32,241 bases of DNA, from positions 1-32,241 of the forward strand of contig JBDLKA010000034.1 in the NCBI GenBank assembly GCA_039714075.1, in the 5' to 3' direction. Shown in pieces: positions 1 through 28,392 of this stretch (positions within the stretch are counted from its first letter, which is position 1; every line of letters starts with the position of its first letter). The notes under the pieces were generated by a model. The model searched no databases and was not told the DNA's origin. It saw only the letters and a program-made list of their open reading frames with translations. The stretch comes from Candidatus Krumholzibacteriota bacterium (GTDB lineage: Bacteria; Krumholzibacteriota; Krumholzibacteriia; LZORAL124-64-63). Position numbers and translations under genes: made by a program.

Positions 1-75
1 AGCGTCGGCGTCGGCGGGCATCAGCGGACGGATATGGATGGACCGGCCGTCCTTGAGAACGATGTTGCGCTCCAT
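1..75 (-). CDS. 5' part of a probable GNAT-family N-acetyltransferase (runs off window)
   Basis: Manual translation MERNIVLKDGRSIHIRPLMPADADA resembles the 'LKDGRxxxIRPLxPxD' GNAT N-terminus; AGGAAAGG RBS upstream of ATG at 75. Confidence 0.6.
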   Translation of the reverse strand, partial: MERNIVLKDGRSIHIRPLMPADADA

Positions 76-105
76 GATTTCCTTTCCTGTTGACCGGCTC
101 CGGGT

Positions 106-609
106 TCAGGCGACCGGGGCCGGCGAGGCGTCGAGCAGGGATTTCAATCCCCGCAGCACCCGGTGGAGGCAGGCGGGGTACGCCCGCGCTACCGGGGGAG
201 TCAGGCCCTTGCCGAAAGTCAGGTCGTCGACGATTTCCACCGCGAAAACATGGATGTCGGAATCCCGGGGAAGCTTCATGCCCAGGCTCCGTCCCAATGC
301 CAGGGCGGTGGCGAAGTTGGCATCGTGTACGTTACACAGATTGGCTGTCTCCCGCAGGTCGGCGGCGGTGAACCGGTAACACGTTCCCGGCTTGCCGCCC
401 CTGGTGTGGATGGCGTCCAGGACGACGGCCTGCTCGAAACCCTCCAGGTAATCCAGAAGGTTCAGCCCGCCTACGCTGCACTCCTCGACAACCACCACGT
501 CCGGCCGGTCGCACAGGGCCAGGTTGACGTCTCGCGCCAGGCGCACTCCCACCGAATCGTCGCTGAGGATGGGATTGCCCATACCGATAATGGTGGTGGT
601 TGCCCGCAC
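106..609 (-). CDS. [NiFe]-hydrogenase maturation endopeptidase (HycI/HyaD family)
   Basis: GMGNPILSDDSVG, VVLDAI and NVHD motifs; directly downstream of the large-subunit gene; GTG start with GGAGG RBS. Confidence 0.92.
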   Translation of the reverse strand: MRATTTIIGMGNPILSDDSVGVRLARDVNLALCDRPDVVVVEECSVGGLNLLDYLEGFEQAVVLDAIHTRGGKPGTCYRFTAADLRETANLCNVHDANFATALALGRSLGMKLPRDSDIHVFAVEIVDDLTFGKGLTPPVARAYPACLHRVLRGLKSLLDASPAPVA

Positions 610-618
610 ACCCGCCTC

Positions 619-2088
619 CTAACCGATGCCCCGCTGGAATGTCCGCACCGTTTCGCCGCCCTGCACGATGTCCACCTGGAGCGGCATTTTGCCGGGCAGA
701 CTGTGGGTGGCGCAGCTGTAGCAGGGATCGAAGCTGCGGAACGCCATTTCCACCAGGTTCAGCACGCCCTGGTCGGGTTCGACCCCCGGCTTGATCATGG
801 TGGCGGCCACCTTTTTCGTGACCATGTGGATCGCCGCGTTGTTGTTCGTCGTGCCGACGATGAGATTGGCGCTGGTGCAAATCCCGTTGTCGTCGCAGGT
901 GTAGTGGTGGGTCAGGGTGCCGCGCATGGCCTCGACGATGCCCACGCCCTCACCGGTAATATTGTCGGGCACCACACGGAACTCATCGCCGGTGATTTCC
1001 GGGTCGTCGCAGTAACGTTGCAGCATCTCGGCGTTCTGTACCATTTCCACCAACCGCGCCCAGTGCGAGGCCAAAAGGGCCTTGCAGGGACGGCCGCCCA
1101 GCGTGGCGAACATTTCCTCGTAGGCTTCCTGGGCCTTCGGTGTGGCCATGCGCTCGGCCACGTTCAGGCGGCTGAGCGGGGTGGCGGTGTAGAGGGGGCT
1201 GTCCTTGCCCTCGACGAAGCCCTGCCAGCCGCGCTGTTTCAGGTAGGGGAACTTCAGGTAGGTCCAGGGTTCCACGTGCTCGGCCACGTGGTCGGCGTAC
1301 TCGTGCTCGTTGTACCGGCAGATCTCCTGGCCCTCGCAGTCCACGACGCGCACCTGGCCGTCGTAGAAGTTCGGCGCCAGGTTCTCGTCGACCAGGCCCA
1401 TGTTGTGGACGTTCAGGGTGTAGGGCCCGTTCAGGATGAGATCCACGTACCCCTCGTTGCCCAGGACGACATCCTTGAACAACTGCAGAGAGAACTGGGT
1501 GAATTCGTAGAGGTTGGCCACCAGGGGTTTGATCTCTTCCAGTTCCTCGGTTTTCAGTCCCTTGGACACGCCCCCGGGAATGCACCACACCAGGTGGGTC
1601 GTGCGTCCGCCGATGATCTGCTGGATCCGCTGTGCCTGGCTGCGGGCCTCGATGACCTTGCCGCCGATTTCCAGACCGACCTTGGCCACCACGCCCAGGA
1701 TGTTGCGCTGGGCCGGATCGGAATCCGGACCGCACACGAAATCGGGGGCGGCCAGGGCGTAGAAGTGGGCCGTGTGGCTGTGGATGTAGTGGGCGTGGTA
1801 GTACATGTCCCGCAGCTTGTGGGCCAGGGGCGCCACCTGCCAGCCGAAGCATCCGTCGACCGCCTTGGCGCTGGCCATGTGATGGCTGGCCGGACAGACC
1901 CCGCAGATGCGCGTGACGATTCGCGGCAGCTCCTCGATGGGCCGTCCCTCGACGAAACGTTCGAAACCGCGCAACTCGGGAATCTGGAAGTAGCAGTCCT
2001 CGACCGCGCCGTCGTCGTCCAGGAAGATCTGGATCTTGCCGTGGCCCTCGAGACGGGTGATGGGATCGATGGCGATTTCCCTGCTCAT
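619..2088 (-). CDS. mvhA: Group 3c (Mvh/Vhu-type) [NiFe]-hydrogenase large subunit
   Basis: Start reassigned to MSREIAIDPITRLEGHG (ATG 2088, AGGAG RBS); L1 RICGVCP and L2 FDPCYSCATH followed by a cleavable C-terminal extension; EAMRGTLTHHY. Confidence 0.93.
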   Translation of the reverse strand: MSREIAIDPITRLEGHGKIQIFLDDDGAVEDCYFQIPELRGFERFVEGRPIEELPRIVTRICGVCPASHHMASAKAVDGCFGWQVAPLAHKLRDMYYHAHYIHSHTAHFYALAAPDFVCGPDSDPAQRNILGVVAKVGLEIGGKVIEARSQAQRIQQIIGGRTTHLVWCIPGGVSKGLKTEELEEIKPLVANLYEFTQFSLQLFKDVVLGNEGYVDLILNGPYTLNVHNMGLVDENLAPNFYDGQVRVVDCEGQEICRYNEHEYADHVAEHVEPWTYLKFPYLKQRGWQGFVEGKDSPLYTATPLSRLNVAERMATPKAQEAYEEMFATLGGRPCKALLASHWARLVEMVQNAEMLQRYCDDPEITGDEFRVVPDNITGEGVGIVEAMRGTLTHHYTCDDNGICTSANLIVGTTNNNAAIHMVTKKVAATMIKPGVEPDQGVLNLVEMAFRSFDPCYSCATHSLPGKMPLQVDIVQGGETVRTFQRGIG

Positions 2089-3068
2089 CACTGGCTCCTT
2101 GTGCTGCGCTGAAGGGTGGATGCCGGCAGACCGAAACGGTAGGCGTAGCCCATCACGTCGGGGATCTCGTCCAGAACGCGCTCCATTTCCCCGGCGTTGC
2201 GGCTTTCGACGATCGAACTGACGGCGCTGATGAACTTGGCGCCCTGGTCCTTGACGTTGGGGGGCGGGCCGTAGCAGCCGCGGCAGGGCATGCCGCTGTC
2301 GGGGCAGCGCACGCCGCAGCCGGCCCGGGTCACCGAGCCCGCACAGATGATGCCCTGCTCCAGGAGGCACTTTTCAGGATCCTGGATGATCTGCCAGGGG
2401 CGCCGGAACTGCGTGACTTTCTTCTCGTCCTTGCGGCGCTCGCACTCGTCGCACAGGGCGCGGTCGCTTGCGCCCACCACCGACCCGGGCCGCGGCAGGT
2501 CGCCGGTCGCCACCGCCAACAGGACCGCCTTGATCTGTGCGGGAGCCGGAGGGCATCCGGGCACGAAATATTCCACCTGGACGACGTCGGACAGCCGGCG
2601 CACCGCACCGTGGAAATGGGGAATCTCCAGGGTGCCGGACGCCACCTTCTTCTCGGCCACCGGCAGCACCACGTTGTCCTCTTCGATGGACGGATTATCC
2701 AGGTAGGCGCGGTTGAAGATCTCCTCGCGGCTGCACTCGTTGGCCAGACCGGGGATGCCTCCCAGATGGGCGCAGCTGCCGAGGGCCACCATGACCTTGG
2801 TCTTGCGCCGCAGCAATTCGGCGATTTTCCGGTTCTCGCTGTTGCGCACCGCGCCGTTGAACAGCACAAGGTCCAGTTCGCCGTCGTCCATGGCCTCGAC
2901 ATCGGCGTATTTGCCGTCCACGGCGATGGGCCACAGGCGGATGTCCGCCAGTTCCGCCACGTCGAGAATGAAGGCGTCGGTGTCGAGCACGGCCACGTCG
3001 CAGCCGCCGCAGGCCGCGCCCCAGTAGATGGCGATCTGCAGCTTCTTCTTTTCCGTTGTTTCAGCCAT
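2088..3068 (-). CDS. mvhG: Mvh-type hydrogenase small Fe-S subunit
   Basis: ACGGCD, GSCAHLGG, VPGCPP, CDEC, CLLEQGIICAG..GCGVRCP..PCRGCYG; no Tat signal; TGATG coupling to mvhA. Confidence 0.92.
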   Translation of the reverse strand: MAETTEKKKLQIAIYWGAACGGCDVAVLDTDAFILDVAELADIRLWPIAVDGKYADVEAMDDGELDLVLFNGAVRNSENRKIAELLRRKTKVMVALGSCAHLGGIPGLANECSREEIFNRAYLDNPSIEEDNVVLPVAEKKVASGTLEIPHFHGAVRRLSDVVQVEYFVPGCPPAPAQIKAVLLAVATGDLPRPGSVVGASDRALCDECERRKDEKKVTQFRRPWQIIQDPEKCLLEQGIICAGSVTRAGCGVRCPDSGMPCRGCYGPPPNVKDQGAKFISAVSSIVESRNAGEMERVLDEIPDVMGYAYRFGLPASTLQRSTRSQ

Positions 3069-3531
3069 GGGTCACCTCCCGGACGACGGGGGCGTCGGGA
3101 TGGGTTCCCGGCTCGAGCGAAAGATCCGGCGGAAGTTCCAGCGGCCCGAGTTCCTTCAGTTCGGCCGTCATGGTGTCCACCAGCCGGGCGAAACGCTCGC
3201 CCTCGCTGGCGCTGACCCACTCCAGGCGCAGCCGCTGTTTTTCGATCCCGTAAGAAACCATCAGTCTCTTGAGCAACTGGAAGCGCCGGTAGGCCTTGTC
3301 GTTGCCTTCCAGGTAATGGCAGTCTCCGGGATGGCAGCCGCAGATCATCACCCCGTCCGCGCCCGAGGCGAAGGCCTGCATGACGAAGGTCGGATCGACA
3401 CGGCCCGAACACATGACGCGGATCACCCGCAGGTTCGGCCGGTGTTTGATACGCGCGGTTCCCGCCAGGTCGGCGCCCGTGTACGAGCACCAGTTGCAGA
3501 GAAAACCGACTATGGTTGGCTCGAACTCCAT
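3061..3531 (-). CDS. mvhD: MvhD/FlpD [2Fe-2S] adaptor subunit
   Basis: FLCNWCSYTGAD, VMCSGRVD, GCHPGDCHY, WVSASEG motifs. Confidence 0.95.
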   Translation of the reverse strand: MEFEPTIVGFLCNWCSYTGADLAGTARIKHRPNLRVIRVMCSGRVDPTFVMQAFASGADGVMICGCHPGDCHYLEGNDKAYRRFQLLKRLMVSYGIEKQRLRLEWVSASEGERFARLVDTMTAELKELGPLELPPDLSLEPGTHPDAPVVREVTHG

Positions 3532-5243
3532 GCCAGGACTCCTTCGATCTGTTCAAGGATCTGCTCGTCGGTGAAATGGCGCGCGGCGATGGCCCCGCTG
3601 GGGCAAGCGGCGACACACGTGCCGCAGGCTTTGCAGAGCGCGCTTTGCACATCACTGCGGCCCTCGTCGGGGTCGTAGGCGATGGCGGTGTAGGGACACA
3701 GTTCGTTGCATACGCGGCACCCGGAGCACAGGTCGCCGTCGATCTGGGCGTAACGGGCGTCGACCTCGACCTTGCCCTGGGCGATGTAGCCCAGCACCAT
3801 GGCCGCCGCGGCGCGGGCCTGGGCCACGGTATCGGGGATGTCCTTGGGCGACTGGCAGCAACCGGCGATGAACACGCCCTCGGTCGGCGTCGAGACCGGC
3901 GCCAGCTTGGGGTGGCTTTCAATGAACCAGCCTTCGACATCCTGGCTGATGCCCACCGTGCGCGCGACCTGATCGCTGTCGGCGCGGGCCTGCATGCCCA
4001 CCATCAGCACCACCAGGTCGGCCGGGACATCGATGGTTTCTCCCGACAGCCTTTCCCGCACCTGAACCAGCAGGCCGCAGTCGTCGCCCGCCTCGGCGGC
4101 CCTGACCACGGGGTAGTCCTCCTTCTCGTACATCAGGAACATGGTCTTCAGTTCGGAAGTGCGGCGGTACAGATCCTCGCCGCCCTTGCCGAAACTGAGC
4201 ATGTCGACGTACAGGTCGGTGACCATGGCCTCGGGCAGGGCGGACTTGATCTCGTGACCGTATTTCAAGGCCGTCATGCAGCAGACCCGCGAGCAGTAGG
4301 TGTGATACTTCACGTTGCGGGAGCCCACGCAGTGAACGATGGAGACATAACGCGGCACCCGGCCGTCGGCGGTTTCCAGCCGGCCCGAACGCAGCCGCTG
4401 CTCGAGTTCGAAGCTGGTGATCACGTCCAGATGCTTGCCGTAGCCCAATCGCTCGACGCGGGTGGCGTCGAACTCGTGGTATCCCGTACAGACGACCACG
4501 CTTCCCACCGGAAACTCCGTATCGGAGCCGTCCTGGTGGGTGACCGTGCCGGTGAAATTTCCCACGAATCCCTGCAGGTCCGTCAGGGTCGAACGAAGAT
4601 GGACATCGATGCGGGGGTTGGTCTCGGCCTGGACGATTTTTTCGGCCAGCAGATCACGCGCCGAATCGAGATACGGGGCCGTCAGATCGACGCGGCCCAC
4701 GTTGCCGCCCAGCCGGCCTTCCTGTTCGATCAGGTGCACGTGCTGCCCGGCGTCGGCCAGCTCCACCGCGACGGTCAATCCGGCGATGCCGCCTCCCAGG
4801 ACCATGGTCGCCGGGGTGTAGGGGGCCTCCTGTTTCTCCAGTGGCTGGTGCCGGGCAACGCGGCGGACGGCGGCGTGGGTCAGGTCCGCCGCCTTGGCCG
4901 TGGCCTTGGCTGGGTCGTCGTGCACCCAGCTGCACTGCTCGCGGATATTGGCCATCTCCAGCATGAAGGGATTCAGTCCGGCGGCTTCGAGCGCCTTGCG
5001 GAAGGTCGGCTCATGCATGCGGGGGCTGCAGGCGGCGACCACCACGCGGTCCAGACCGTGCTCCTTGATGTCCTGGGTGATCATGTCCTGTCCGGGATTG
5101 GAGCACATGTACTTGTAGGTGCGGGCGCAGGCTACTTCGGGCAGGTCGGCCACCCGGTGGCAGACCCTTTCGGCATTGACCACCTTGGCGATATTCGTCC
5201 CGCAGTTGCAGATGTAGACGCCGATGCGGCACTCGTCGTTCAT
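3510..5243 (-). CDS. hdrA: HdrA-family FAD/Fe-S protein (paralogue 2: intact N-terminal Cys domain and C-terminal ferredoxin, no inserted ferredoxin)
   Basis: RIGVYICNCG, YMCS, AACSP, EQCSW; GGGIAG FAD motif; HCVGSR..YCSRVCCMTALK; GCCQSPKDIP; C-terminal CxxCxxCxxxCP twice. Confidence 0.92.
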   Translation of the reverse strand: MNDECRIGVYICNCGTNIAKVVNAERVCHRVADLPEVACARTYKYMCSNPGQDMITQDIKEHGLDRVVVAACSPRMHEPTFRKALEAAGLNPFMLEMANIREQCSWVHDDPAKATAKAADLTHAAVRRVARHQPLEKQEAPYTPATMVLGGGIAGLTVAVELADAGQHVHLIEQEGRLGGNVGRVDLTAPYLDSARDLLAEKIVQAETNPRIDVHLRSTLTDLQGFVGNFTGTVTHQDGSDTEFPVGSVVVCTGYHEFDATRVERLGYGKHLDVITSFELEQRLRSGRLETADGRVPRYVSIVHCVGSRNVKYHTYCSRVCCMTALKYGHEIKSALPEAMVTDLYVDMLSFGKGGEDLYRRTSELKTMFLMYEKEDYPVVRAAEAGDDCGLLVQVRERLSGETIDVPADLVVLMVGMQARADSDQVARTVGISQDVEGWFIESHPKLAPVSTPTEGVFIAGCCQSPKDIPDTVAQARAAAAMVLGYIAQGKVEVDARYAQIDGDLCSGCRVCNELCPYTAIAYDPDEGRSDVQSALCKACGTCVAACPSGAIAARHFTDEQILEQIEGVLAWSSSQP

Positions 5244-5253
5244 GTCGCCCTCC

Positions 5254-6402
5254 TCAGGCGGTCTGGGCGGCCGGCTGTGGCCGCTCTTCGGTTTCTTCTT
5301 CGGCCAGCAGGGCCTTCTCGCGCATGGTCGAGAAGTACATCGCCAGCGGCCGGTAGGCCATGTGGGACCATTTGCTGAACGGCACCTCGAGCACCAGCAT
5401 GGGCACCACGCCCATCATGTGGGCGATGTAGACGACGTTGGCCGCCGTGGTCCACCCGCCACGGTGAAGAACGTGCTGGATGATGCCTGTCACCGACACC
5501 ACCAGCAGTAGCACCAGGAAGATCCAGTCCGTTTCATGGCTGTGCTGATAGTGGGTCCAGGTCTTTCGCACCCGGCCGGCCAGGGCGTAGATCGTCGTTC
5601 CCACCAACCCGGCCGCGGCGAGGTAGCCGAAGGCGTGGGCCTTCCAGTCGATGGCCGGCCCGTGCTGCACCCGGTGCAGGAAGAACATGATCAGGATCAG
5701 CATGGTCAGATAGCTGAGCATCAGCACCAGATGCACCGCCCAGGGTTGTTTGCGGTCGCACTGGCTGTAGCGGTGCTGGGTGATGAAGTGCCAGGGCACC
5801 AGGAACAGCTGTTTGATGTATTCGCCCGGCGGAATCCTGACCTCCTTGTCGGCACCGACGGTGTACCACCACATGCGCACGCAGTTGATGCCCAGCAGGA
5901 CCACCAGCACGCCCGCCATGACCCAGTCGAAGACGTGGATTTTTTCCGCCGGCAAAAACGCGCCCGGGCCGTCGTAGATGTTGATGTCGCCCTGCGCCAT
6001 TCCGAACAGCGTCAACCCCAGCCCGGTCAGCAGCGCCACCAGCACGATGGCCAGCAGTTCCGCCTTCGCGCTGCGGTAGAACAGACCGGAGATGCCGGTG
6101 AAATCGTAGCGGGCGGTCAGCCAGCGCCGCATGCTCATCATCGTCTCGCCGGGTTCCGCGCCGCGGGGGCATTCCTCCGAACATTCGCCGCAGTAGTAGC
6201 ACAGCCACGGCTCGAGGTTGCCCTGCAGCCGGGACGACAGCCCGAGCTGCAGGTAGCGCATGGATTTGCGGGGGAAGACGAATACGTCTCCGGAGAACGG
6301 ACAGGTGGCGCTGCAGTTGCCGCAGTGGTAGCACTTCACCACGTCCTGGGCGCCGTACTTCTCCAGCTCGTCGATCAGGTGTGGGTTGGCTCGGATGGCC
6401 AT
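5254..6402 (-). CDS. qmoC: QmoC-like protein: HdrC-like 2x[4Fe-4S] domain plus heme-b membrane anchor
   Basis: Start reassigned to MAIRANP (ATG 6402, GGAGGAG RBS); CYHCGNCSATCP and CYYCGECSEECP; about six hydrophobic helices with His residues; VPFSKWSHMAYRP NarI/HdrE-type end. Confidence 0.85.
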   Translation of the reverse strand: MAIRANPHLIDELEKYGAQDVVKCYHCGNCSATCPFSGDVFVFPRKSMRYLQLGLSSRLQGNLEPWLCYYCGECSEECPRGAEPGETMMSMRRWLTARYDFTGISGLFYRSAKAELLAIVLVALLTGLGLTLFGMAQGDINIYDGPGAFLPAEKIHVFDWVMAGVLVVLLGINCVRMWWYTVGADKEVRIPPGEYIKQLFLVPWHFITQHRYSQCDRKQPWAVHLVLMLSYLTMLILIMFFLHRVQHGPAIDWKAHAFGYLAAAGLVGTTIYALAGRVRKTWTHYQHSHETDWIFLVLLLVVSVTGIIQHVLHRGGWTTAANVVYIAHMMGVVPMLVLEVPFSKWSHMAYRPLAMYFSTMREKALLAEEETEERPQPAAQTA

Positions 6403-8246
6403 GGCTCCTCCTGTGTTTTGATGCTCGCCAGACGGGCCGCGGTGTCGGCCGCCTCCTCCGGCGAAACCGAATCGCGGCCCACGCGGACCGAACCGCTGAT
6501 GATGCTGCCCAGCACCCTTGCGGCCACGGCCGAGGCCTGGGCCACGGTATCGGGAATGTCCTTGGGCCCCTGGCAGACGCCCGCCACGTGGATGCCCCCG
6601 CGGTTGGTGGCCGTGGGGTCGGTGTTGTAGTTGAGTTCGGTGAACCAGCCGTCGCAGCCGGGATGGATGTCCAGCACCTTGGCCAGTCTCTGGGCGCCCC
6701 GGGCGGGCTCGAGGCCCACCGCCAGCAGCACCATATCCACCGGGAATTCCCGGATGCGGTCGTGGACGACGTCTTCGCCACGGATGACCATGCCGTCGGT
6801 GCCGGCCTCGATACGCGCGGTGCGGCCCCGGACCACGAACACGCCCTCGTCCTTGATGCGTTCGAAGAACTCCTCGTAGCCTTTGCCGAAGGCGCGCATG
6901 TCGATGTAGAACTGGTAACAGGCGGCGTCGGGAAGCTTTTCCTTCACCAGATGCGCGAACTTCAGCGAATACATGCAACAGACGCGCGAACAGTAGGGGT
7001 TGTGGTTCTGGTCCCGCGAACCCACGCAGTGGATGATGGCCACGCTGCGCGGCGCCGGGGCCTCGGTGTCGAACACCCACTCCTCCTGTTTGGTCTTGCG
7101 TTTGCGACGTGCGGTGCGGGTCACGATGCGTCCGCCGGTGGGGCCGGAGGCGTTGGTCAACCGCTCGAATTCGAGGGCGGTCAGCACGTTGGGCAGCTTG
7201 CCGTACCCGTAGCGCTCGATGAGCTCTGCGTCAAAGGTGTCGAAACCGGTGGCCACCACGATGTTGCCCACCGTCAATTCCTCCGAATGCGGCTCTTCAT
7301 CCAGGTGGATGGCGTCCTTGGGACACTTTTTCACGCAGGCCCCGCACTTTTTGCCTTCGGATTTGACCCACAGACAGTTTTCCCCGTCGACCACGTAGGA
7401 ATTCGGGATGGCCTGGGGAAAAGCCATGTAGATGGCCTTGCGCTCGACGATGCCTTCGTCGAATTCGCTGGGCACCCGCACCGGGCAGACGTCGCGGCAG
7501 GCGTGGCAGGCGACGCAGGCCTCGGGATCGACACGGCGCGCCCTCCGCAACACCCGCACCTTGTATTCACCCGCCACACCGCCGACGTCCTGCACCTCGG
7601 AGCAGTTCAGGATGTCGATGTTCTCGTGCTGCCCCGCCGCCACCATTTTCGGGGTCAGGATGCAGGCCGCGCAGTCGAGGGTAGGAAAGGTCTTGTCGAA
7701 CATGGCCATGTGGCCGCCGATGGTGGCGGCTCGTTCGACCAGGTGCACCTTGTGGCCGGCGCCGGCGATGCGCAGGGCCGTTTCGATGCCGGCGACCCCG
7801 GCGCCAATGACCAGGGTATCGGGATGGACCGGCACGCGGGCCGGTGTCACCGCCAGCCCGAACGGTACTCCGTGGACGGCGCAGGCGACCGCCGCCAGAG
7901 CGGAGTTTTCGGCCGCGCCCGTGGCGGCCCCGACCTCTCCGAAGGAAGCCAGCCGGACAAGCTCGGGATCTCCGCCGGCCATGACCATGGCCCGGGTGAA
8001 GACAGGCTTGTGTCCTCCGGGAGTGTCGCCCGCGATGACGACCTCGGTCAGTTGGAGACGCTGGATGGTTTCAGCCAGGATTTTCGGATCGGGTCTGGCC
8101 TCGGGGTCGAGCTCTTCCACGGCCGCCACGTCCGGGAGCTCACGGGCGAAGGCCATGATCCGGGGGATATCCAGTCCGTCAAGGCGGCCGGTGTCGGCGT
8201 GTGAAAAGAAGATGCCGATTTTTTTGGGGGACGCGGTGGGGGCCAT
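6375..8246 (-). CDS. hdrA: HdrA-family FAD/Fe-S protein (paralogue 1: Cys-free N-terminal domain, inserted ferredoxin, no C-terminal ferredoxin)
   Basis: Start reassigned to MAPTASPKK (ATG 8246, AAAGGA RBS); GAGVAG, DKTFPTLDCAACIL, CVACHACRDVCP, CGACVKKCP, CVGSRD..YCSRVCCMYSLK, DMRAFGKGYEEF, GVCQGPKDIP. Confidence 0.92.
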   Translation of the reverse strand: MAPTASPKKIGIFFSHADTGRLDGLDIPRIMAFARELPDVAAVEELDPEARPDPKILAETIQRLQLTEVVIAGDTPGGHKPVFTRAMVMAGGDPELVRLASFGEVGAATGAAENSALAAVACAVHGVPFGLAVTPARVPVHPDTLVIGAGVAGIETALRIAGAGHKVHLVERAATIGGHMAMFDKTFPTLDCAACILTPKMVAAGQHENIDILNCSEVQDVGGVAGEYKVRVLRRARRVDPEACVACHACRDVCPVRVPSEFDEGIVERKAIYMAFPQAIPNSYVVDGENCLWVKSEGKKCGACVKKCPKDAIHLDEEPHSEELTVGNIVVATGFDTFDAELIERYGYGKLPNVLTALEFERLTNASGPTGGRIVTRTARRKRKTKQEEWVFDTEAPAPRSVAIIHCVGSRDQNHNPYCSRVCCMYSLKFAHLVKEKLPDAACYQFYIDMRAFGKGYEEFFERIKDEGVFVVRGRTARIEAGTDGMVIRGEDVVHDRIREFPVDMVLLAVGLEPARGAQRLAKVLDIHPGCDGWFTELNYNTDPTATNRGGIHVAGVCQGPKDIPDTVAQASAVAARVLGSIISGSVRVGRDSVSPEEAADTAARLASIKTQEEPWPSEPTHT

Positions 8247-8551
8247 GATGGTCGCGGTCCTTTCTCGGGCGTGCCCATGACCGGGCGTGTGCCGGTGCCG
8301 CGAGAATCCGCTCCCTGCTTTGTCGTGGTGGCGTCCTTCGCTGTCGGGTGATCCTTCTAGGTTGTCGACCTTCATCAGTTGGGGCGCGAACCCTCGGGAT
8401 TACTTGAATCCTTACTGAAAAGCCTACTGAAAGGTTGTTAATTATTCAAGCAAAAATAATAAAAAATTAACGAACAAAAGGACGAAAAACCGACCTTTGG
8501 GTGGGAAATTGGAAAAACACACCTCAAAATAGGGTTTTTTTGGGGATATTT

Positions 8552-8569
8552 TTGTTAAAGAGTTAACAT
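8552..8569. promoter_or_regulatory. Rex-like operator palindrome TTGTTAA-AGAG-TTAACAT
   Basis: One mismatch to the TTGTTAA-N4-TTAACAA Rex-box variant; in the AT-rich region upstream of the hdrA operon. Confidence 0.6.
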
Positions 8570-8595
8570 TTTATATTAAACACCAAATTGTTCAA
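8568..8595 (-). promoter_or_regulatory. Putative sigma70 promoter of the hdrA-qmoC-mvh operon
   Basis: Minus strand TTGAAC-16 nt-TAAAAT, oriented toward hdrA, inside an AT-rich island. Confidence 0.45.
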
Positions 8596-8731
8596 AACGT
8601 TGTGAACCCTTATTTTGCGGGATCGGTGGGAAATTTGTCCCCAAAATCTTCCTTTGGGCAATTCCTGGTATAATTCCACGATGTGCCCTGGGGTCCGGTG
8701 GGGCCGGAAAACATCCCCTCGCCTTGCCGAT

Positions 8732-9433
8732 CTAGCCGAACACCTTCCGCAAAAGCTCCGTGGTGCGCGCCGCGGGGTCGTCGCGGATCTTTTTCTCTTC
8801 CCCTTCGAGGATCAGAAAGATTCCGTCCACCGTGCGCTCGGTAATGTAGTCGTCAAGATCGACGGCTTCGGGTTTGGCGATCGGCAGCATGTTGTAGCGG
8901 GCGACCAGGTCTTCGTGGATCCGGTAGACCCCGACCTCTTTCATCGAGGAAATGACGATCGGCTGAAATCGCGCCATGAGCTCGGAGCTGGTCTGGCGGC
9001 GGAAGTATTCGGTGGCGGCGTTGTCCTCGCCGTTGAGGATGCCGAAGGCGTCGGAAATACTCATCCTGGTGATCGAATCCCAGAACACCTCGACGGCCTC
9101 GGCCGAGGCCTTTTCCGCCGCCCGGTTCATGCTGAGTTCAAACTGATCCACCTGCGACCCCAGGCCGATGTCGCGGATGGCCTTGGCCACGCTGTCGTAT
9201 TGTTCGGGCAGGGCGACGCGAATGGCGGCGTTGCCGTAGAACCCGTCCACGGCCGAGGTGGTATTCGTGGAGCGCTCGGTGCCGATGCGCAGCGCTTCCT
9301 TGAGGCCGGCGGCCACGGTCTCGCTGTCCAGGGGCTTGTTCAGAATCCGGTCCAGGGATTCGGCGTTGAACCCGGCGCAACCGGAGACCAGTAGGCAGGC
9401 GATGGCCAGGGCGAGGATCCGTCGTGTCTTCAT
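8732..9433 (-). CDS. DUF4197-family lipoprotein
   Basis: Start MKTRRILA (ATG 9433); lipobox LVSGC; GLKEALRIG, MNRAAEKA, NAATEYF, IRDDPAARTTELLRKVFG. Confidence 0.88.
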   Translation of the reverse strand: MKTRRILALAIACLLVSGCAGFNAESLDRILNKPLDSETVAAGLKEALRIGTERSTNTTSAVDGFYGNAAIRVALPEQYDSVAKAIRDIGLGSQVDQFELSMNRAAEKASAEAVEVFWDSITRMSISDAFGILNGEDNAATEYFRRQTSSELMARFQPIVISSMKEVGVYRIHEDLVARYNMLPIAKPEAVDLDDYITERTVDGIFLILEGEEKKIRDDPAARTTELLRKVFG

Positions 9434-9653
9434 TTTGGTCCGTCCTTTCGGGAAGGGTGGAATTGTGCCCTTCATTTTTCGGGTTGTCCATTCATATGCA
9501 CGAAAGGATGGTTTCGGCGGGGGCATTTTTATCATCCAGGGCCCCGGATGTTCCACGCTCGGCCACTCTCGGGAATAGACGATCAATTGAGTTCACTTCT
9601 TGCTGGGGGAATATGGTTTTTCAACGATCATTCCCAGCACAGGAAAGGCTGAC

Positions 9654-10322
9654 ATGAACTTCCCGAAGAGACGAACCGTCCTTTTGATCACCTTGGCCGT
9701 TCTCGTTCCCTTGTCCGCAAATGCCGGGCCTTTTTACGGGGGACTCAACTTGGGATACACCGGAGGCTTGGGCATCCAGGCCACCGGCAGTTTCATGGAT
9801 TTCACCCGCGACCTTCCCTTGTCCGCGCGGTTCACCCTGGGCTACAACTCGGCCAGTCCCGGCGACCCGTACGCTGCGCGGCAAATATTCATCAACGACA
9901 ATACCAACGGCGACCCGGAAAAAAGCGCCAGCACCTGGCAGTTCCGTTTCGATCTGATGTTTCCCGCTTTCGAACTCGGGCCCCAGACCCTCTATCTGTT
10001 CGCCGGGCCCCGCCATGCCAAGTATACGGCCAACTTCAATTATATAGGCGGCAACGAGAACTTCGACGTGACCAGCAACACCTGGGGCGCCGGACTGGGA
10101 TTCGAAAGCTGGTTCGCGGTGGGCGGCACGTCGGATTTCGTTCTGCAGGTAGGTGCGGATTGGTATGCCGAATCCGAACTGTCCGGCCACGATACCACCT
10201 ATCTTCCGAGTGGCGACCACGTCAATCCCCGGGACGGATATGACTACAATTCGGCCGACGACGCAATCGACCAGCCGAGCCTGGAATTGCTGGCGATGAT
10301 GGGGATGCGCTTCGGGTTTTGA
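9654..10322 (+). CDS. Putative outer-membrane beta-barrel protein
   Basis: Start MNFPKRR (ATG 9654, AGGAAAGG RBS); signal peptide ending ANA; alternating aromatic/Gly strands; C-terminal MRFGF. Confidence 0.65.
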   Translation: MNFPKRRTVLLITLAVLVPLSANAGPFYGGLNLGYTGGLGIQATGSFMDFTRDLPLSARFTLGYNSASPGDPYAARQIFINDNTNGDPEKSASTWQFRFDLMFPAFELGPQTLYLFAGPRHAKYTANFNYIGGNENFDVTSNTWGAGLGFESWFAVGGTSDFVLQVGADWYAESELSGHDTTYLPSGDHVNPRDGYDYNSADDAIDQPSLELLAMMGMRFGF

Positions 10323-10429
10323 TAGCCGCCGATTTCCCACCATTATCCTGGGTTGAAGTGGCCGTCATTCGCGAGTAGATTGGTCGGATTCGGCCTTGGT
10401 ATTGGACTCAAACCCGGAGATGACGAGCC

Positions 10430-11464
10430 ATGAATAATGCGATCAGGCCCTTGTTGGTTCTTGCGGCCCTGTCCCTTCTCGTTCTTGCCGGCTGCGGCGG
10501 CGGAGAACCGGCCGATACGGCGGCCGGCGGACCGCCCACCCCGCAGCACAAGAACATGTTCGGCGGCATGCCGAAGGTCATGGAGTCGGCCGACAATCCC
10601 CTGACCGACGCCAAGATCGAGCTGGGCCGCATCCTCTATTACGAGCCCCGCATGTCGGTCAGCAATGACATTTCCTGCAACAGCTGCCACGTGCTGGATG
10701 AGTTCGGCGTGGACGGGTTGGCCACCTCGCCCGGCCACGACGGCACCCTCGGCGCCCGCAACAGCCCGACGGTCTACAACGCCGCCAATCACATCGCCCA
10801 GTTCTGGGACGGCCGCGAACCCACGGTCGAAGCCCAGGCCAAGGGCCCGATCCTCAACCCGGTCGAGCACGGCATGGCCTCAGCCGAGGCTGTTGAAGAG
10901 GTTCTGCGAGGCATTCCCGAGTACGCCCCCTTGTTCGAGGCGGCATTTCCGGGCGAGGAAGAGCCGGTCACCTTCGACAACGTGGCGATGGCCATCGGCG
11001 CCTTCGAGCGCAAGCTGACCACCCGCGGCGACTGGGACCGCTGGCTGGCGGGCGACGGCAACGCCATCACCGTTCAGGAGCGCCGCGGCCTGGACACCTT
11101 CACGGAAATCGGCTGCACGACCTGCCACATGGGTCCCAACCTGGGCGGATCGTTGTACCAGAAAATGGGATTGGTGGAGGCCTATCCTTCCGAGGACAAG
11201 GGTCGCTCGGAGGTAACCGGCAACGCGGCCGAGGAGTACTTCTTCAAGGTGCCGTCCCTGCGAAACATCGCCGAGACCGGTCCCTATATGCATGACGGCT
11301 CGCTCGAGTCCCTGGAAGAGGTCGTGCGGATCATGGCCAAGCACCAGCTCGGCAAGCCCGTGACCGAGGCGCAGGTCGCCGACATGGTGGCCTTCATGAA
11401 GAAGCTCACGGGCAAGTTGCCGGCGGAGTACATTACCGAGCCGAAGTTGCCGGGGATGTCGTAG
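10430..11464 (+). CDS. Di-heme cytochrome c peroxidase (CCP/MauG family), lipoprotein
   Basis: CNSCH and CTTCH heme motifs; RNSPTVYNA, QFWDGR, PILNPVEH, FKVPSLRNI, PYMHDG; lipobox LAGC. Confidence 0.93.
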   Translation: MNNAIRPLLVLAALSLLVLAGCGGGEPADTAAGGPPTPQHKNMFGGMPKVMESADNPLTDAKIELGRILYYEPRMSVSNDISCNSCHVLDEFGVDGLATSPGHDGTLGARNSPTVYNAANHIAQFWDGREPTVEAQAKGPILNPVEHGMASAEAVEEVLRGIPEYAPLFEAAFPGEEEPVTFDNVAMAIGAFERKLTTRGDWDRWLAGDGNAITVQERRGLDTFTEIGCTTCHMGPNLGGSLYQKMGLVEAYPSEDKGRSEVTGNAAEEYFFKVPSLRNIAETGPYMHDGSLESLEEVVRIMAKHQLGKPVTEAQVADMVAFMKKLTGKLPAEYITEPKLPGMS

Positions 11465-11503
11465 GTGAAATCCTGAGGCGGAGCGTTCGAAGAGCCAAAC
11501 ATC

Positions 11504-11535
11504 AAAATGAGGTGTCCCCGGGGGCACCTCATTTT
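11504..11535. repeat. Palindrome/terminator-like hairpin AAAATGAGGTGTCCCCGGGGGCACCTCATTTT
   Basis: Near-perfect inverted repeat 40 bp after the peroxidase stop, followed by a T-tract; core shared with 30661 and 31458. Confidence 0.75.
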
Positions 11536-11658
11536 TTCATATCATCATGGTGGCCGGCGTTTCTTTCTGCCGGACCAGTGAAACCATGATAGGATTTTGG
11601 GGTAAACGTCCCACGGGAATTGGGAAATCACAAAACGAGTGAAAAATTGAAATCCCCC

Positions 11659-13164
11659 ATGATACAGAATGTCAGATGGTCAAGTGGTTCACGAATCCCA
11701 CTGTGGCTCCAGTCCGCCCTGATGGTTCTTTTATTTTTTCCATCCAACAAAGCGGCCGCGGCCCCATTGGAAACGGAAAGGGCGGCCGCATTCCTTCAGG
11801 GTATGCTTGATCACCCGGACTCCATGAATGCGTTCATCAGCGACGAAGATCAGATAACATCCCGACGTTTGGGCATCAGTTATCCCGAAGCCCCCTGCAA
11901 GCCGTTGATCTCCTGGGGTCTTTCTGTGGAGGACCACGCCCGATTGCTTCGGGACGGTTTGGACGGCCAGTTCAACATCGAGGAACTTGATGGCCGGTTT
12001 TCCCGTCTGGTCCTTTTCCCCGGCGACAGCACCGCGACCCGGAGCTGGGATTTTCAGGACGGCATGGTGGTTTCCTCGATCCTCCATCGGACGCGGGAAT
12101 GGAAGCAGATCGACTCGCCCCACTTCCGTTTCTTCATCAGCGACACCGCGCTGTTCCATCCCGCCAACATTGAGGCGCTCGAATCATTTCTGACAGACAC
12201 GGCCTCGCTGCTGGGCATGTCGGACGCCGACCTGGACCGGCTTTCCCGGGAGAAGATCTACTACTGTTTCTGCAGCAGCCAGGAGGAGATTCGCGAGCTC
12301 ACCGGGTATGTCGCACGGGGCATGTATGTGGTTTCCCACGACATCATCGTGTCGACCTATAGCGCCCACTTTCATGAGCTGGCGCACCTTTTGATGAACT
12401 ACAAGCTCCAGCGGCCTCACCTGTATACGCACCCCCTGTTTTTGGAGGGGTTCGCCGTCGCGGTCGGCGGGCGGGGCGGCAGGTCGCCGGATATTATGCA
12501 CCAGTTAGGCCTGTCCATTCATCGGGAGGGGTGGGTGTCGCTGGAAGAATTGTTGGATGCCCAAGGGTTCTATTCGTTGAATGCATCAATGTCCTATCCC
12601 GGCAGCGCACCCTTCAATCGGTTCCTCCTGGAAGAGCTGGAGTCCACGGACTATTTGGTGCTTTATGAACGATACGGGGGAGACGCCCCATCGGTCATGC
12701 GAATGAAGATCGACCAAGCGGAGTTGCCGACAGAAAAGTCCTGGCGAAAATATCTGGAGGAACAGCCGGCTGAAGGCGCGATCGGACCCGGAGCCGTCGG
12801 GCTTGAGACGAGAAGCGGCCCGGTGGCGTTCCATCCGCTTTCCGACGGCGCGCACTTCGGATTCGCGGTTTTCGGCACGACGCTGGCGATTGCAGGACCA
12901 CCTTCCGCGGAGTACCGCAGCTTTCTTTACGAGGATTTTTTTGAAAACGCACCCTATGCCGGACAGCGGTATCTGATCAGGGCCTCGGCGGGAGAAGTCG
13001 GTGTGTATGACCTCTTTACGAACACGATGATCGCGCACTACGCATCGGGATTCTCGGATGACCTTTCGGAAATCCCGGTTGTCGACGGCCGGTTCCTTTT
13101 TCACGTTGACCGGTCGGTATTTCCCGATGACCTGGGAGCTGTCGAGTGTCGGTTCATTGAATAA
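11659..13164 (+). CDS. Secreted hypothetical protein with gluzincin (peptidase MA-like) motif
   Basis: Signal-like N-terminus; SPHFRFF, FHELAH followed by FLEGFAV (HExxH..E); start uncertain. Confidence 0.6.
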   Translation: MIQNVRWSSGSRIPLWLQSALMVLLFFPSNKAAAAPLETERAAAFLQGMLDHPDSMNAFISDEDQITSRRLGISYPEAPCKPLISWGLSVEDHARLLRDGLDGQFNIEELDGRFSRLVLFPGDSTATRSWDFQDGMVVSSILHRTREWKQIDSPHFRFFISDTALFHPANIEALESFLTDTASLLGMSDADLDRLSREKIYYCFCSSQEEIRELTGYVARGMYVVSHDIIVSTYSAHFHELAHLLMNYKLQRPHLYTHPLFLEGFAVAVGGRGGRSPDIMHQLGLSIHREGWVSLEELLDAQGFYSLNASMSYPGSAPFNRFLLEELESTDYLVLYERYGGDAPSVMRMKIDQAELPTEKSWRKYLEEQPAEGAIGPGAVGLETRSGPVAFHPLSDGAHFGFAVFGTTLAIAGPPSAEYRSFLYEDFFENAPYAGQRYLIRASAGEVGVYDLFTNTMIAHYASGFSDDLSEIPVVDGRFLFHVDRSVFPDDLGAVECRFIE

Positions 13165-27731: not shown

Positions 27732-27867
27732 AATCGGGACCTCCTGAGGGAGTGAAAGGTTGTACCGGAGATCGTGTCCAGGTTGTTGGGAGAAAAATCC
27801 TGGCGACGATTCCGGAACCAGCGTCCCCGAACAAAGAGTTTGGCCGATTTTCAAGGGATTATTCGCG

Positions 27868-28392
27868 TCAGGGTGAGTCGGTCGAATCCGGGGGAGCGAA
27901 CTCCAATTCCAGCCGGGCGGCATCTGCTTCCTGGATTGTGATATACGACCGCGTGTCCCTGACCATGGTCTCGAGATCCAACCCGAGTTTCCTTTCCCCG
28001 GTCCACCGCGCGTGCCGCAAAGAATGATCATGCAGCCGCATTGCCCCGACAGGCCGGTCGGTAAATGCCTTCAAATGCGCCGCCGCGCACTGAATGACCG
28101 CCTGCAGCACATGCCCGGCATCGCTGCCGACCCCCGCCGCCAGCCACAATCCTTCCAGCACCTCGTGGCACTCCCACCAGTACCCTTCGTTGAACAGATC
28201 GATGCCGTACAGGTATTCTTCGCTCTTCCGCCAGTCCTCGTGGTTCAGGTCCGGCAGGTCGGGTTCGGGGCGACCGTAGGAGTGCCCCTCGGGGTTCCGC
28301 GTGGGGTGCGGCGTCTTTCCCGGAAGGTGGCGGTAGTCCGGAAGGGGCCTGTCGGTGTATCTTTTGCCGTCGGAGCCGGTCATGTTCGCCAT
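27868..28392 (-). CDS. DUF309-domain protein
   Basis: YLYGIDLFNEGYWWECHEVLEGLW..IQCAAAH; N-terminal PGKTPHP. Confidence 0.85.
   Translation of the reverse strand: MANMTGSDGKRYTDRPLPDYRHLPGKTPHPTRNPEGHSYGRPEPDLPDLNHEDWRKSEEYLYGIDLFNEGYWWECHEVLEGLWLAAGVGSDAGHVLQAVIQCAAAHLKAFTDRPVGAMRLHDHSLRHARWTGERKLGLDLETMVRDTRSYITIQEADAARLELEFAPPDSTDSP

Follow-up and report, generated by a model that had tools for sequence, protein, structure and literature searches.

The window is a 32,241-nucleotide stretch of contig JBDLKA010000034.1, from a Candidatus Krumholzibacteriota genome assembly. It displays a seven-gene operon that encodes, in order, HdrA', a QmoC-like subunit, HdrA'', MvhD, MvhG, MvhA and a protease. 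The genes overlap or are separated by 5–10 nt; the last 28 nt of HdrA' are shared with the start of the QmoC-like gene, and the last 22 nt of HdrA'' with the start of MvhD. The features are:

8247–8640, minus strand: A+T-rich intergenic region upstream of the operon, with one sigma-70-like match at 8595–8568
6375–8246, minus strand: HdrA', QmoA-like subunit by domain pattern and orthologue alignments, 623 aa
7842–8246, minus strand: degenerate N-terminal domain of HdrA' (approximately aa 1–135), by alignment to the HdrA N-terminal domain
7662–7676, minus strand: DCAAC motif of HdrA' (D191–C195), both Cys kept in 73/73 orthologues
7293–7538, minus strand: inserted 2x[4Fe-4S] ferredoxin domain of HdrA' (approximately aa 237–318), eight Cys, each in 73/73 orthologues
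5254–6402, minus strand: QmoC-like membrane subunit, 382 aa; its N-terminus is HdrC-like (2x[4Fe-4S]), and it has a histidine-rich domain of several helices
3510–5243, minus strand: HdrA'', QmoB-like subunit by domain pattern and orthologue alignments, 577 aa
4653–4667, minus strand: DSARD of HdrA'' (D193–D197), which replaces DCxxC; Cys in either column in 0/59 orthologues
3564–3755, minus strand: C-terminal 2x[4Fe-4S] ferredoxin domain of HdrA'' (approximately aa 497–560), eight Cys, each in 59/59 orthologues
3061–3531, minus strand: MvhD, FlpD family, 156 aa (PF02662, E-value 2.8e-53)
2088–3068, minus strand: MvhG-like [NiFe]-hydrogenase small subunit, 326 aa
619–2082, minus strand: MvhA-like [NiFe]-hydrogenase large subunit, 487 aa, with RICGVCPASHH and DPCYSCATH motifs
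106–609, minus strand: HycI-type hydrogenase maturation protease

The region at 8247–8640 is likely to be the operon promoter region. Two sigma-70-like matches were observed against 1.2 expected, a comparison based on consensus matching alone. The HdrA' start at position 8246 agrees with the orthologue alignments, although translation may instead begin at an in-frame ATG upstream, at position 8375. Scores with all family models are under their curated cut-offs; the QmoC-like subunit, for example, gives 182.9 bits with the qmoC model, where the cut-off is 300.

The HdrA'' sequence aligns with the methanogen HdrA chain 8rvu_a (E-value = 1.2e-147) in two blocks, query positions 3–231 with chain positions 10–239, and 232–571 with 314–654. 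The match leaves out approximately positions 240–313 of the chain, thus the inserted ferredoxin is absent from HdrA''. Its N-terminal domain is present, as is the ferredoxin at the C-terminus, and the site of DCxxC reads YLDSARD. HdrA' aligns with the same chain as one block (positions 6–589 with chain positions 10–579, E-value = 3.6e-129) and shows the mirror image. It has the inserted ferredoxin, with cysteines at positions 244, 247, 250, 254, 291, 301, 304 and 308, and reads TLDCAAC at the DCxxC site, but has no C-terminal ferredoxin. Its C195 falls in the same alignment column as Cys/Sec197 of methanogen HdrA. In HdrA' the N-terminal domain is alignable, but is without any of the cluster cysteines (IGIFFSHAD, IAGDTP and FGEVG); invariant non-Cys residues are retained. 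Common to both proteins are GxGxxG, the CVGSR...CSRVCC cluster and the Lys after CCM (K429 in HdrA', K327 in HdrA''), and these motifs are invariant in 37-sequence alignments. The domain pattern of the two proteins and their shared FAD, cluster and CCMxxxK motifs are thus as originally predicted.

The reciprocal cysteine and domain pattern is real and strongly conserved. It was followed in 73 HdrA' and 59 HdrA'' orthologues from Acidobacteriota, Actinomycetota, Bacteroidota, Myxococcota, Thermodesulfobacteriota, Krumholzibacteriota and other phyla, and the loss is complementary in 73/73 and 59/59 of these, respectively, as the original prediction would have it. C12, C14, C47, C72 and C104 of HdrA'' are retained in all 59 sequences together with the eight C-terminal ferredoxin cysteines, and the insert is absent from every one. 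Among the HdrA' orthologues, the column of C104 (HdrA'' numbering) has Cys in only 1/73, the commonest residues listed in three further N-terminal Cys columns are not Cys, and nearly all sequences have gaps or residues other than Cys in the columns of the C-terminal ferredoxin. One Cys persists in the C12 column in 55/73, although not in the HdrA' of the window. HdrA' has in addition an extra cysteine, C122, which is invariant (73/73).

The gene order is also conserved. HdrA', QmoC-like and HdrA'' follow each other in 65 of the 67 loci that have enough flanking sequence; the remaining two (L066 and L075) show the same order with frameshifted matches. Where the flanks on both sides are long enough (50 loci), MvhA adjoins in 47. 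In the QmoC-like subunit the eight Fe-S cysteines are kept in 68/68 sequences, and His224, His328, His347 and Cys215 are invariant.

A double HdrA is found in the same genome, where two complementary halves are joined in one polypeptide. The gene was pieced together across two contig ends that share 99 identical bases. One half has DCxx(TGA) and the inserted ferredoxin and is without the N- and C-terminal domains; the other keeps N-terminal cysteines and a ferredoxin at its C-terminus, and is without DCxxC and the insert. An MvhD gene comes after this second half.

From these comparisons we infer an asymmetric HdrA'/HdrA'' heterodimer of broken two-fold symmetry, together with its electron path, its substrates and bifurcation. 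The HdrA' FAD alone would have three redox branches, and the dimer would be part of a membrane-anchored, H2-bifurcating complex of HdrA', QmoC-like, HdrA'', MvhD, MvhG and MvhA, encoded by one operon. The probability of this reading is put at roughly 0.6. The N-/C-terminal arm would come from HdrA'', and HdrA' would bring the flavin, DCxxC and the way out to ferredoxin, as in the original prediction. The heterodimer is supported by the reciprocal loss across phyla, the gene linkage, the fused double HdrA and a published structural feature, the ligation of one HdrA protomer's N-terminal cluster by Cys197 from its partner, on the way to the inserted ferredoxin (Chadwick 2022, PMC9012536). A later account describes the HdrA N-terminal domain as mobile, places a Cys-Sec197 pair between the N-terminal cluster and FAD, and reads Cys/Sec197 as half of a redox-active pair and not simply as a cluster ligand (Nature 2026, PMC13518236).

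In the proposed path MvhAG would oxidize H2 and electrons would pass by the MvhD [2Fe-2S] cluster to the N-/C-terminal arm of HdrA'', and from there to the FAD of HdrA'. The low-potential branch would run from the N-terminal [4Fe-4S] cluster of HdrA'', set against DCxxC of HdrA', to the inserted ferredoxin of HdrA' and then to ferredoxin. The high-potential branch would run by a CVGSR...CSRVCC cluster into the QmoC-like subunit, through its two [4Fe-4S] clusters and its hemes b, and end at menaquinone. The net reaction would be reduction of quinone and ferredoxin by H2 through flavin-based bifurcation. The pair probably connects the hydrogenase with the quinone pool of the membrane, and perhaps also with ferredoxin. 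A point against the reading is that menA had no match in the genome, whose completeness is 92%. The HdrA'' FAD is probably still bound, since its motifs are invariant. With FAD motifs and the flavin-domain cluster retained in both subunits, this second flavin may do something that lies outside the model. The Cys-less N-terminal domain of HdrA', its invariant C122 and the single N-terminal Cys of the 55 orthologues are also outside the model.

The same heterodimer could work as a linear H2:quinone oxidoreductase that does not bifurcate. Its flavins and inserted ferredoxin would then be mere wires, or two-electron/one-electron converters, on the way from the hydrogenase to the QmoC-like cytochrome, and ferredoxin would stay unreduced. 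From H2 to menaquinone electrons run strongly downhill without any need for coupling, the operon has no ferredoxin gene, and bifurcation has, according to Ramos 2012, never been demonstrated for a Qmo-type complex. However the whole HdrA low-potential branch (the N-terminal cluster cysteines, DCxxC and the eight cysteines of the inserted ferredoxin) is invariant in the orthologues, and such selection is not expected on a dead-end branch. The pair also branches with canonical Mvh-linked HdrA, which is part of bifurcating complexes. A linear enzyme is considered unlikely. A service to APS reductase, in which menaquinol and H2 electrons are delivered together to AprAB (confurcation), as proposed for QmoABC of sulfate reducers, is less probable again. 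The same genome bin does contain an aprA fragment (570.6 bits, model positions 1–353), but it is on a 1-kb contig that could be a binning error; there is no apr or sat gene in the window, dsrA was not found in the genome, and aprA is present in only 1 of 10 other cluster-carrying genomes, which are incomplete MAGs. This reading draws on the occurrence of type II Qmo in V. moutnovskia and A. degensii, which reduce sulfate (Neukirchen 2023, PMC10504309), and on the naming of a hydrogenase as a possible Qmo co-donor (Ramos 2012).

Here again, the retention of FAD motifs and the flavin-domain cluster by both proteins can be read otherwise, as a sign of two separate enzymes. HdrA'' would form a homodimer with MvhDGA (a soluble hydrogenase), HdrA' a homodimer with the QmoC-like subunit (a ferredoxin:quinone enzyme), and the reciprocal loss would be independent trimming. 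In the Bacteroidota loci mvhDGA is indeed upstream of HdrA' and not beside HdrA''. An HdrA'' homodimer would however have an N-terminal cluster site with neither its Cys197 partner nor an exit, and an HdrA' homodimer would have DCxxC and no N-terminal cluster to serve. Both HdrA genes flank the QmoC-like gene in 65 of the 67 loci, another protein of the genome carries the same halves in covalent fusion, and QmoABC is described as one complex in which QmoA and QmoB are the cytoplasmic subunits (Ramos 2012). Separate enzymes are improbable, and the heterodimer is the preferred reading.

The original prediction held that this split differs from that of QmoA and QmoB, and this part of it is not sustained. 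In bona fide loci of qmoABC, the canonical (type I) complex of sulfate reducers and sulfur oxidizers, the HdrA parts are divided identically. [quoted passage not shown] By sequence comparison HdrA' is QmoA-like and HdrA'' is QmoB-like. The QmoC-type membrane subunit is also common to both, with the same eight Fe-S cysteines, and its His224, His328, His347 and Cys215 are likewise unchanged throughout 28 QmoC proteins encoded at qmoAB-linked loci, although the subunit of the window reaches 183 bits of the 300 set for the canonical QmoC model. Two FAD and two hemes b are reported for the canonical complex, and quinols reduce the hemes (Ramos 2012). As judged from the sequences, the actual differences are in ancestry, in the Cys-less N-terminal domain that HdrA' retains and canonical QmoA is without altogether, and in MvhD, which is fused to canonical QmoB and is a separate gene here. 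The locus is linked to a hydrogenase, and aprAB is not nearby. In the core trees the pair falls with canonical HdrA and away from canonical Qmo, whose clade excludes both proteins (split SH-aLRT 100). A single clade of HdrA' and QmoA was rejected (AU test, p 0.001).

The tree placement fits the published "type II Qmo". Chernyh in 2020 is reportedly a source on type II QmoAB(C). These systems have two HdrA-derived subunits beside a QmoC-type subunit, as here, and both subunits are described as nearer to typical HdrA than to canonical QmoA and QmoB (Neukirchen 2023, PMC10504309; DiSCo, PMC8477390), with which the present trees and BLAST scores agree. The likeness rests on that description, for which V. 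moutnovskia and A. degensii are the references. The module of the window differs in being hard-wired to mvhDGA, with the gene order A, C, B.

The nearest solved relatives are the MvhADG-HdrABC complexes of methanogens (PDB 5odc, 8rvu and 7bkb; E-values 1e-147 and 1e-129). The hydrogenase module MvhDGA is of the same type, and HdrC is matched by the N-terminus of the QmoC-like subunit. In methanogens, however, HdrA is a homodimer whose protomers each have all four domains, whereas here the domains are divided between two proteins. The methanogen complex has heterodisulfide as its high-potential acceptor by way of HdrBC; here there is no HdrB, and a membrane cytochrome takes its place.

The idea of a complementary HdrA heterodimer is already published. 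Tandem or fused complementary HdrA proteins of ANME and Moorella (HdrA5/6, 12/13, 3 and 4) are also proposed to form a symmetry-breaking heterodimer (Chadwick 2022, PMC9012536). As described there, their partners are HdrBC-type or other soluble modules, unlike the QmoC cytochrome of the present locus, and HdrA' differs from them in keeping its N-terminal domain in a Cys-less form. Bifurcation from H2 to menaquinone and ferredoxin has likewise been proposed for the same gene set, the "Mvh-Qmo-Hdr" cluster of Ca. Methanoglobus nevadensis and Ca. M. hypatiae, which is highly expressed in Ca. Methanoglobus (Lynes 2024, PMC10945360). The complementary cysteine and domain pattern is absent from the discussion in the available part of that report. 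The host there is archaeal (Archaeoglobi), and the two clusters are likened by gene set.

HdrA' and HdrA'' are encoded in a tight minus-strand operon (DNA of 64–66% G+C) in which adjacent genes either overlap by 8–28 nt or are separated by gaps of 5–10 nt. The genes are:

6375–8246, minus strand, HdrA' (QmoA-like flavoprotein), 623 aa
5254–6402, minus strand, QmoC-like membrane protein, 382 aa
3510–5243, minus strand, HdrA'' (QmoB-like flavoprotein), 577 aa
3061–3531, minus strand, MvhD, 156 aa
2088–3068, minus strand, MvhG, 326 aa
619–2082, minus strand, MvhA, 487 aa
106–609, minus strand, HycI-type protease, 167 aa

An in-frame ATG at position 8375 would lengthen HdrA' by 43 residues (8247–8375). 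The shorter start at 8246 is preferred because the orthologue alignments begin near this position.

Pfam searches show FAD and ferredoxin domains in both HdrA' and HdrA'', the FlpD domain in MvhD, and hydrogenase subunit families in MvhG and MvhA. For both flavoproteins the highest-scoring NCBIfam model is HdrA2 (528 and 577 bits, cut-off 1100), and the best models for the hydrogenase genes are VhuA (368 bits, cut-off 800), VhuG (199 bits, cut-off 450) and VhuD (122 bits, cut-off 215); none of the operon's best models reaches its curated cut-off. The MvhA translation displays the N- and C-terminal CxxC motifs of the nickel site, i.e. RICGVCPASHH and DPCYSCATH. A large subunit with both motifs, a small subunit and MvhD, which mark the Mvh-type [NiFe]-hydrogenase, are all encoded here, and we take the enzyme to belong to group 3c. 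No HdrB was found in the operon with Pfam or NCBIfam, and an HdrC-like domain is present solely as the N-terminus of the QmoC-like protein. The remaining genes of the window are unrelated to the operon, e.g. those for a DUF4197 protein, a cytochrome c peroxidase and efflux systems. Among the matches listed, the closest records are Krumholzibacteriia MAGs with about 90% protein identity. The window also encodes a 583 aa protein (26280–28031, minus strand) with three dockerin type I repeats and a FlgD Ig-like domain. Dockerin type I repeats are unusual outside of cellulosome-forming bacteria.

Alignment with a solved methanogen HdrA chain (8rvu_a) shows how the two flavoproteins differ. HdrA' aligns as a single block from chain position 10 to 579, which includes the inserted 2x[4Fe-4S] ferredoxin and ends ahead of the C-terminal ferredoxin. 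HdrA'' aligns as two blocks that skip the insert (chain positions ~240–313) and reach the end of the C-terminal ferredoxin. The DCxxC region reads TLDCAAC in HdrA' and YLDSARD in HdrA''. Thus the four modules of a canonical HdrA (N-terminal Cys domain, DCxxC, insert and C-terminal ferredoxin) are divided two and two in a complementary manner. Both proteins have the FAD-binding thioredoxin-reductase-like domain with the CxGSR...CSRxCC [4Fe-4S] site, and the two are 38% identical across the C-terminal 274 flavin-domain residues and 28% identical across the N-terminal 225.

The reciprocal loss of domains and cysteines, which was the core of the original prediction, is confirmed by these alignments and is equally complementary in orthologues. 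From the best 80 of at least 499 confirmed related loci, 72 HdrA' and 58 HdrA'' sequences with a full-length match and at least 55% identity were taken; with the window copies added (n = 73 and n = 59), every Cys column was counted. All 73 HdrA' sequences have the two DCxxC cysteines and the eight insert cysteines. Of the five N-terminal Cys columns this group has lost four, the remaining one persisting in 55 of the 73, and the C-terminal ferredoxin is gone. In the HdrA'' group each of the five N-terminal cysteines and eight C-terminal ferredoxin cysteines is found in 59/59 sequences, neither DCxxC column has a Cys in any of the 59, and the insert is missing throughout (59/59). The observation is statistically solid. 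HdrA' also displays an additional cysteine, C122, in 73/73 sequences, which HdrA'' does not have.

Retention of the FAD motif, the flavin-domain cluster and the Lys after CCM in both proteins, also claimed originally, holds as well. All four cluster cysteines are kept in both groups. Alignments of 37 sequences (the window pair and 36 of the 58 orthologue pairs, the others being dropped because of stop codons in the reference; span 125–595 of HdrA' and 1–500 of HdrA'') show the GxGxxG glycines and this Lys to be invariant, as are the CxGSR...CSRxCC cysteines (C407, C419, C423 and C424 of HdrA'; C305, C317, C321 and C322 of HdrA''). Relative to methanogen HdrA, HdrA' has a basic insertion, RTARRKRKTKQEEWVFDTEAPAP, at aa positions 376–398 (window 7053–7121). 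The insertion is kept by orthologues, with W390 invariant, and may be a docking element.

The QmoC-like protein is encoded between the two flavoproteins. Its best NCBIfam model is qmoC, at 182.9 bits against an equivalog cut-off of 300, and its N-terminus matches the HdrC chains of solved Hdr complexes (7bkb_C, E-value 1.4e-10). Eight Fe-S cysteines are conserved in 68/68 sequences. A di-heme cytochrome b of the QmoC/HdrE type would be expected to bind its hemes through four histidines of the transmembrane helices. His224, His328, His347 and one Cys are invariant both in these 68 and in the 28 QmoC sequences of qmoAB-linked loci, and further histidines are conserved in the cluster type only, i.e. 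H156 and H289 (67 of 68 each) and H256 (65 of 68). This conservation supports the proposed membrane branch. A search of the window's own genome gave no second qmoC-like gene apart from an HdrC-like match, and five deltaproteobacterial MAGs that carry the cluster gave no match above the qmoC cut-off.

The gene order HdrA', QmoC-like, HdrA'' was found by an automatic rule in 65 of 67 loci that have at least 1.8 kb downstream of HdrA' (from the best 80 of at least 499); in the remaining two (L066 and L075) this order is also seen, with frameshifted matches. Of the 50 loci where there is room on both sides, 35 have MvhA downstream, 12 (Bacteroidota) have it directly upstream and 3 have it on neither side. 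Species-representative genomes contain at least 499 confirmed HdrA' relatives, and uncultured bacteria of soil, sediment and groundwater commonly carry the operon. Hosts of the related loci listed are Acidobacteriota, Actinomycetota (Thermoleophilia), Bacteroidota, Myxococcota, Thermodesulfobacteriota, Chrysiogenota, Aminicenantes, Sumerlaeota and Krumholzibacteriota.

A second cluster adjoins the module upstream of the HdrA' match in seven of the loci compared (L007, L014, L024, L026, L027, L029 and L035), from several Acidobacteriota, Thermoleophilia and Myxococcota. It encodes a canonical HdrA and a separate set of MvhD, MvhG and MvhA. In one Bacteroidales MAG (L063) the module is present twice, as divergent back-to-back copies: the copy at 27–6698 (minus strand) has HdrA', the QmoC-like gene, HdrA'' and MvhDGA, and that at 8001–12708 (plus strand) has HdrA', the QmoC-like gene and HdrA'', after which no Mvh genes were matched.

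Two HdrA genes besides HdrA' and HdrA'' are present in the window's own genome (G000). One (L083, G000:C61:15940–19632, minus strand) encodes a canonical four-domain HdrA fused to MvhD and lies downstream of an HdrC/HdrB-like fusion gene. Where DCxxC has its second Cys, the frame contains a TGA (TMDCSI-TGA-IL), so that this HdrA is probably a selenoprotein whose Sec occupies the Cys197 position. Sec197 of Methanococcus HdrA occupies this same second-Cys position (Nature 2026, PMC13518236). The canonical HdrA also bears on C104 of HdrA'', which lies in the motif REQC where methanogen HdrA has REHD and was considered as an HdrA''-specific replacement in cis for Cys197. This was rejected, since the canonical protein combines the fifth N-terminal Cys (REHC) with an intact DCxx(Sec).

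The other gene encodes a double HdrA (about 1030 aa) and begins in L087 (G000:C172:1914–4907, plus strand) and continues in L084 (G000:C61:18284–20929, minus strand). An assembly break divides it, with 99 identical bases overlapping between the two contig ends. In the first half, DCxx(TGA), whose TGA is again at the Cys197 position, and the insert are present and the terminal domains are absent. The second half has the N-terminal cysteines and the C-terminal ferredoxin and is without DCxxC and the insert; an MvhD gene follows it. Here the same complementary halves are covalently joined in a paralogue, and this is the strongest indirect support in the present data for the pairing of HdrA' with HdrA''.

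A heterodimer of HdrA' and HdrA'' is the best available reading of these sequence patterns. H2 would be oxidised by MvhAG, and MvhD together with the HdrA'' arm would pass electrons to the FAD of HdrA'. One branch would then run from this FAD via the HdrA'' N-terminal cluster to the HdrA' DCxxC, the inserted ferredoxin and on to ferredoxin, and the other via a flavin-domain cluster to the Fe-S clusters of the QmoC-like protein, the hemes and quinone. On this model HdrA' would hold three [4Fe-4S] clusters (one in the flavin domain, two in the insert), and HdrA'' would hold one in its flavin domain, two in its C-terminal ferredoxin and a shared N-terminal one that depends on HdrA'. DCxxC may act as a cluster ligand or as a redox-active pair, Cys/Sec197 being read as part of such a pair in Nature 2026 (PMC13518236). 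A search for menA gave no match in the window's own genome, which is 92% complete. That the flavoproteins form two separate homodimeric enzymes is quite improbable and fits the data most poorly, the fused double HdrA in particular pointing to a pair.

A linear H2:quinone enzyme that reduces no ferredoxin is rather unlikely and leaves the invariant low-potential branch unexplained. A module that serves APS reductase in the manner of Qmo is less likely still, although an aprA fragment is present in the genome bin (G000:C259:9–1025, on a ~1-kb contig; 570.6 bits for model positions 1–353). The fragment could be from a real APS reductase or be a binning error. Against such a role, there are no apr or sat genes in the 32-kb window around the operon, dsrA was not found in the 92% complete genome, and aprA was found in one of ten other genomes with the cluster, these being incomplete MAGs.

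The original prediction also held that the split between HdrA' and HdrA'' differs from that between QmoA and QmoB. As to architecture this is wrong. A bona fide qmoABC locus was found in another genome, G008 (QmoC 423.8 bits, above the cut-off), and 80 further QmoB loci, including Archaeoglobus, Desulfofundulus, Desulforadius and Desulfacinum, were collected. In a four-group alignment, QmoA (n = 68) has Cys at the Cys197 column in 68/68 sequences and has the insert, and is without N-terminal domain or C-terminal ferredoxin; the insert's first motif keeps three of its cysteines in 68/68 and the fourth in 57/68, and the second motif is partly degenerate. QmoB (n = 72) has the N-terminal cysteines, no Cys197 (0/72), no insert, all eight C-terminal ferredoxin cysteines (72/72) and a fused MvhD-like domain. 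Thus the parts of HdrA are partitioned in canonical QmoA and QmoB as they are in HdrA' and HdrA''. Unlike type I Qmo, HdrA' retains an N-terminal domain, devoid of its cysteines, and MvhD is unfused in the window operon. In some type I qmo loci (L107, L108, L112 and L116, with Zixibacteria among the hosts, and L110 of Krumholzibacteriia) qmoC is upstream of qmoA/qmoB instead of downstream, and in L110 it is on the opposite strand.

As to ancestry the claimed difference stands. Two trees were made from 328 shared flavin-domain columns: a FastTree of 87 rows (about 18–22 from each of the four groups, picked at random plus named rows, with 6 canonical HdrA and 2 fused halves) and a quick IQ-TREE (LG+C20) of a 44-row subsample. 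Both are unrooted and without bootstraps, and the second half of the fused HdrA sits on a very long branch. HdrA', HdrA'', QmoA and QmoB each form one side of a branch in both trees, with IQ-TREE supports of 99, 100, 87 and 99, respectively. The split of QmoA and QmoB from HdrA', HdrA'', canonical HdrA and the fused halves, on which the two trees agree, has an SH-aLRT of 100 in IQ-TREE, and there the group of HdrA', HdrA'' and five Mvh-linked canonical HdrA has a support of 97. The closest relatives of HdrA' in the tree are the canonical HdrA of the neighbouring second clusters. A single clade of HdrA' and QmoA, a grouping named after the tree was seen, is rejected by the AU test (log-likelihood 115 lower, p 0.001). 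By BLAST, HdrA' displays 43–47% identity to Mvh-linked canonical HdrA versus 34% to QmoA. For HdrA'', identity to canonical HdrA is 48–53% in the N-terminal 230 residues, and identity of the whole protein to QmoB is 28–29%. The trees, the AU test and the BLAST identities together make HdrA' and HdrA'' look like a separate duplication inside HdrA that arrived at the same partition as Qmo.

Tentatively, the complementary partition (Cys197 and insert versus N-terminal cluster and C-terminal ferredoxin) may have evolved independently at least twice and probably three times, i.e. in QmoA/QmoB, in HdrA'/HdrA'' within the Mvh-linked canonical HdrA and in the fused double HdrA; a probability of about 0.45, a little short of even odds, is given to this reading. 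If it is true, that HdrA dimers converged repeatedly on a single complete path would point to half-of-the-sites reactivity, a single bifurcating flavin per dimer being enough or even favoured, and the widespread bacterial complex would be a natural single-path model of HdrA bifurcation with quinone as acceptor.

Through the operon its hosts would have a cytoplasmic hydrogenase feeding into the quinone pool and, if bifurcating, reduced ferredoxin from H2 with no need of membrane potential. A natural heterodimer with one complete set of branches would remove the ambiguity of the symmetric HdrA dimer and would suit spectroscopy. No report of purification or biochemistry of the complex was found in the literature searched; its value is that of a widespread natural single-path HdrA system, and purification would be rewarding. 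For annotation, HdrA' and HdrA'' should be read as QmoA- and QmoB-like subunits of one complex, and not as two heterodisulfide reductases.

A statement of the complementary pattern for canonical QmoA/QmoB was not found in the available text of the literature searched, Chernyh 2020 and Appel 2021 excepted. The Buckel and Thauer 2018 review contains none of the structural terms looked for, a bioRxiv preprint on HdrA evolution mentions neither Qmo nor heterodimers, and the supplement of Neukirchen 2023 gave no match for type II, Mvh or Krumholzibacteri. Type II QmoABC is reported, with citation of Chernyh 2020, in Neukirchen 2023 (PMC10504309) and DiSCo (PMC8477390). The type is described there as having QmoA- and QmoB-like subunits nearer to typical HdrA and a QmoC-type subunit, and by this description HdrA' and HdrA'' match it. 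The same gene set (MvhAGD, two HdrA, and QmoC fused to HdrC) is found in Ca. Methanoglobus, where the cluster is reported to be highly expressed and a bifurcation from H2 to menaquinone and ferredoxin is proposed (Lynes 2024, PMC10945360). Chadwick 2022 (PMC9012536) describes tandem or fused HdrA of ANME and Moorella that are complementary in Cys197 versus the N-terminal domain and in the C-terminal ferredoxin; heterodimers in which the two-fold symmetry is broken are proposed there. HdrA' and HdrA'' show the same complementarity, and the QmoC-like gene alone separates their genes. The heterodimer idea is therefore already in print, and the operon is a new bacterial example of a complex type described from genes.
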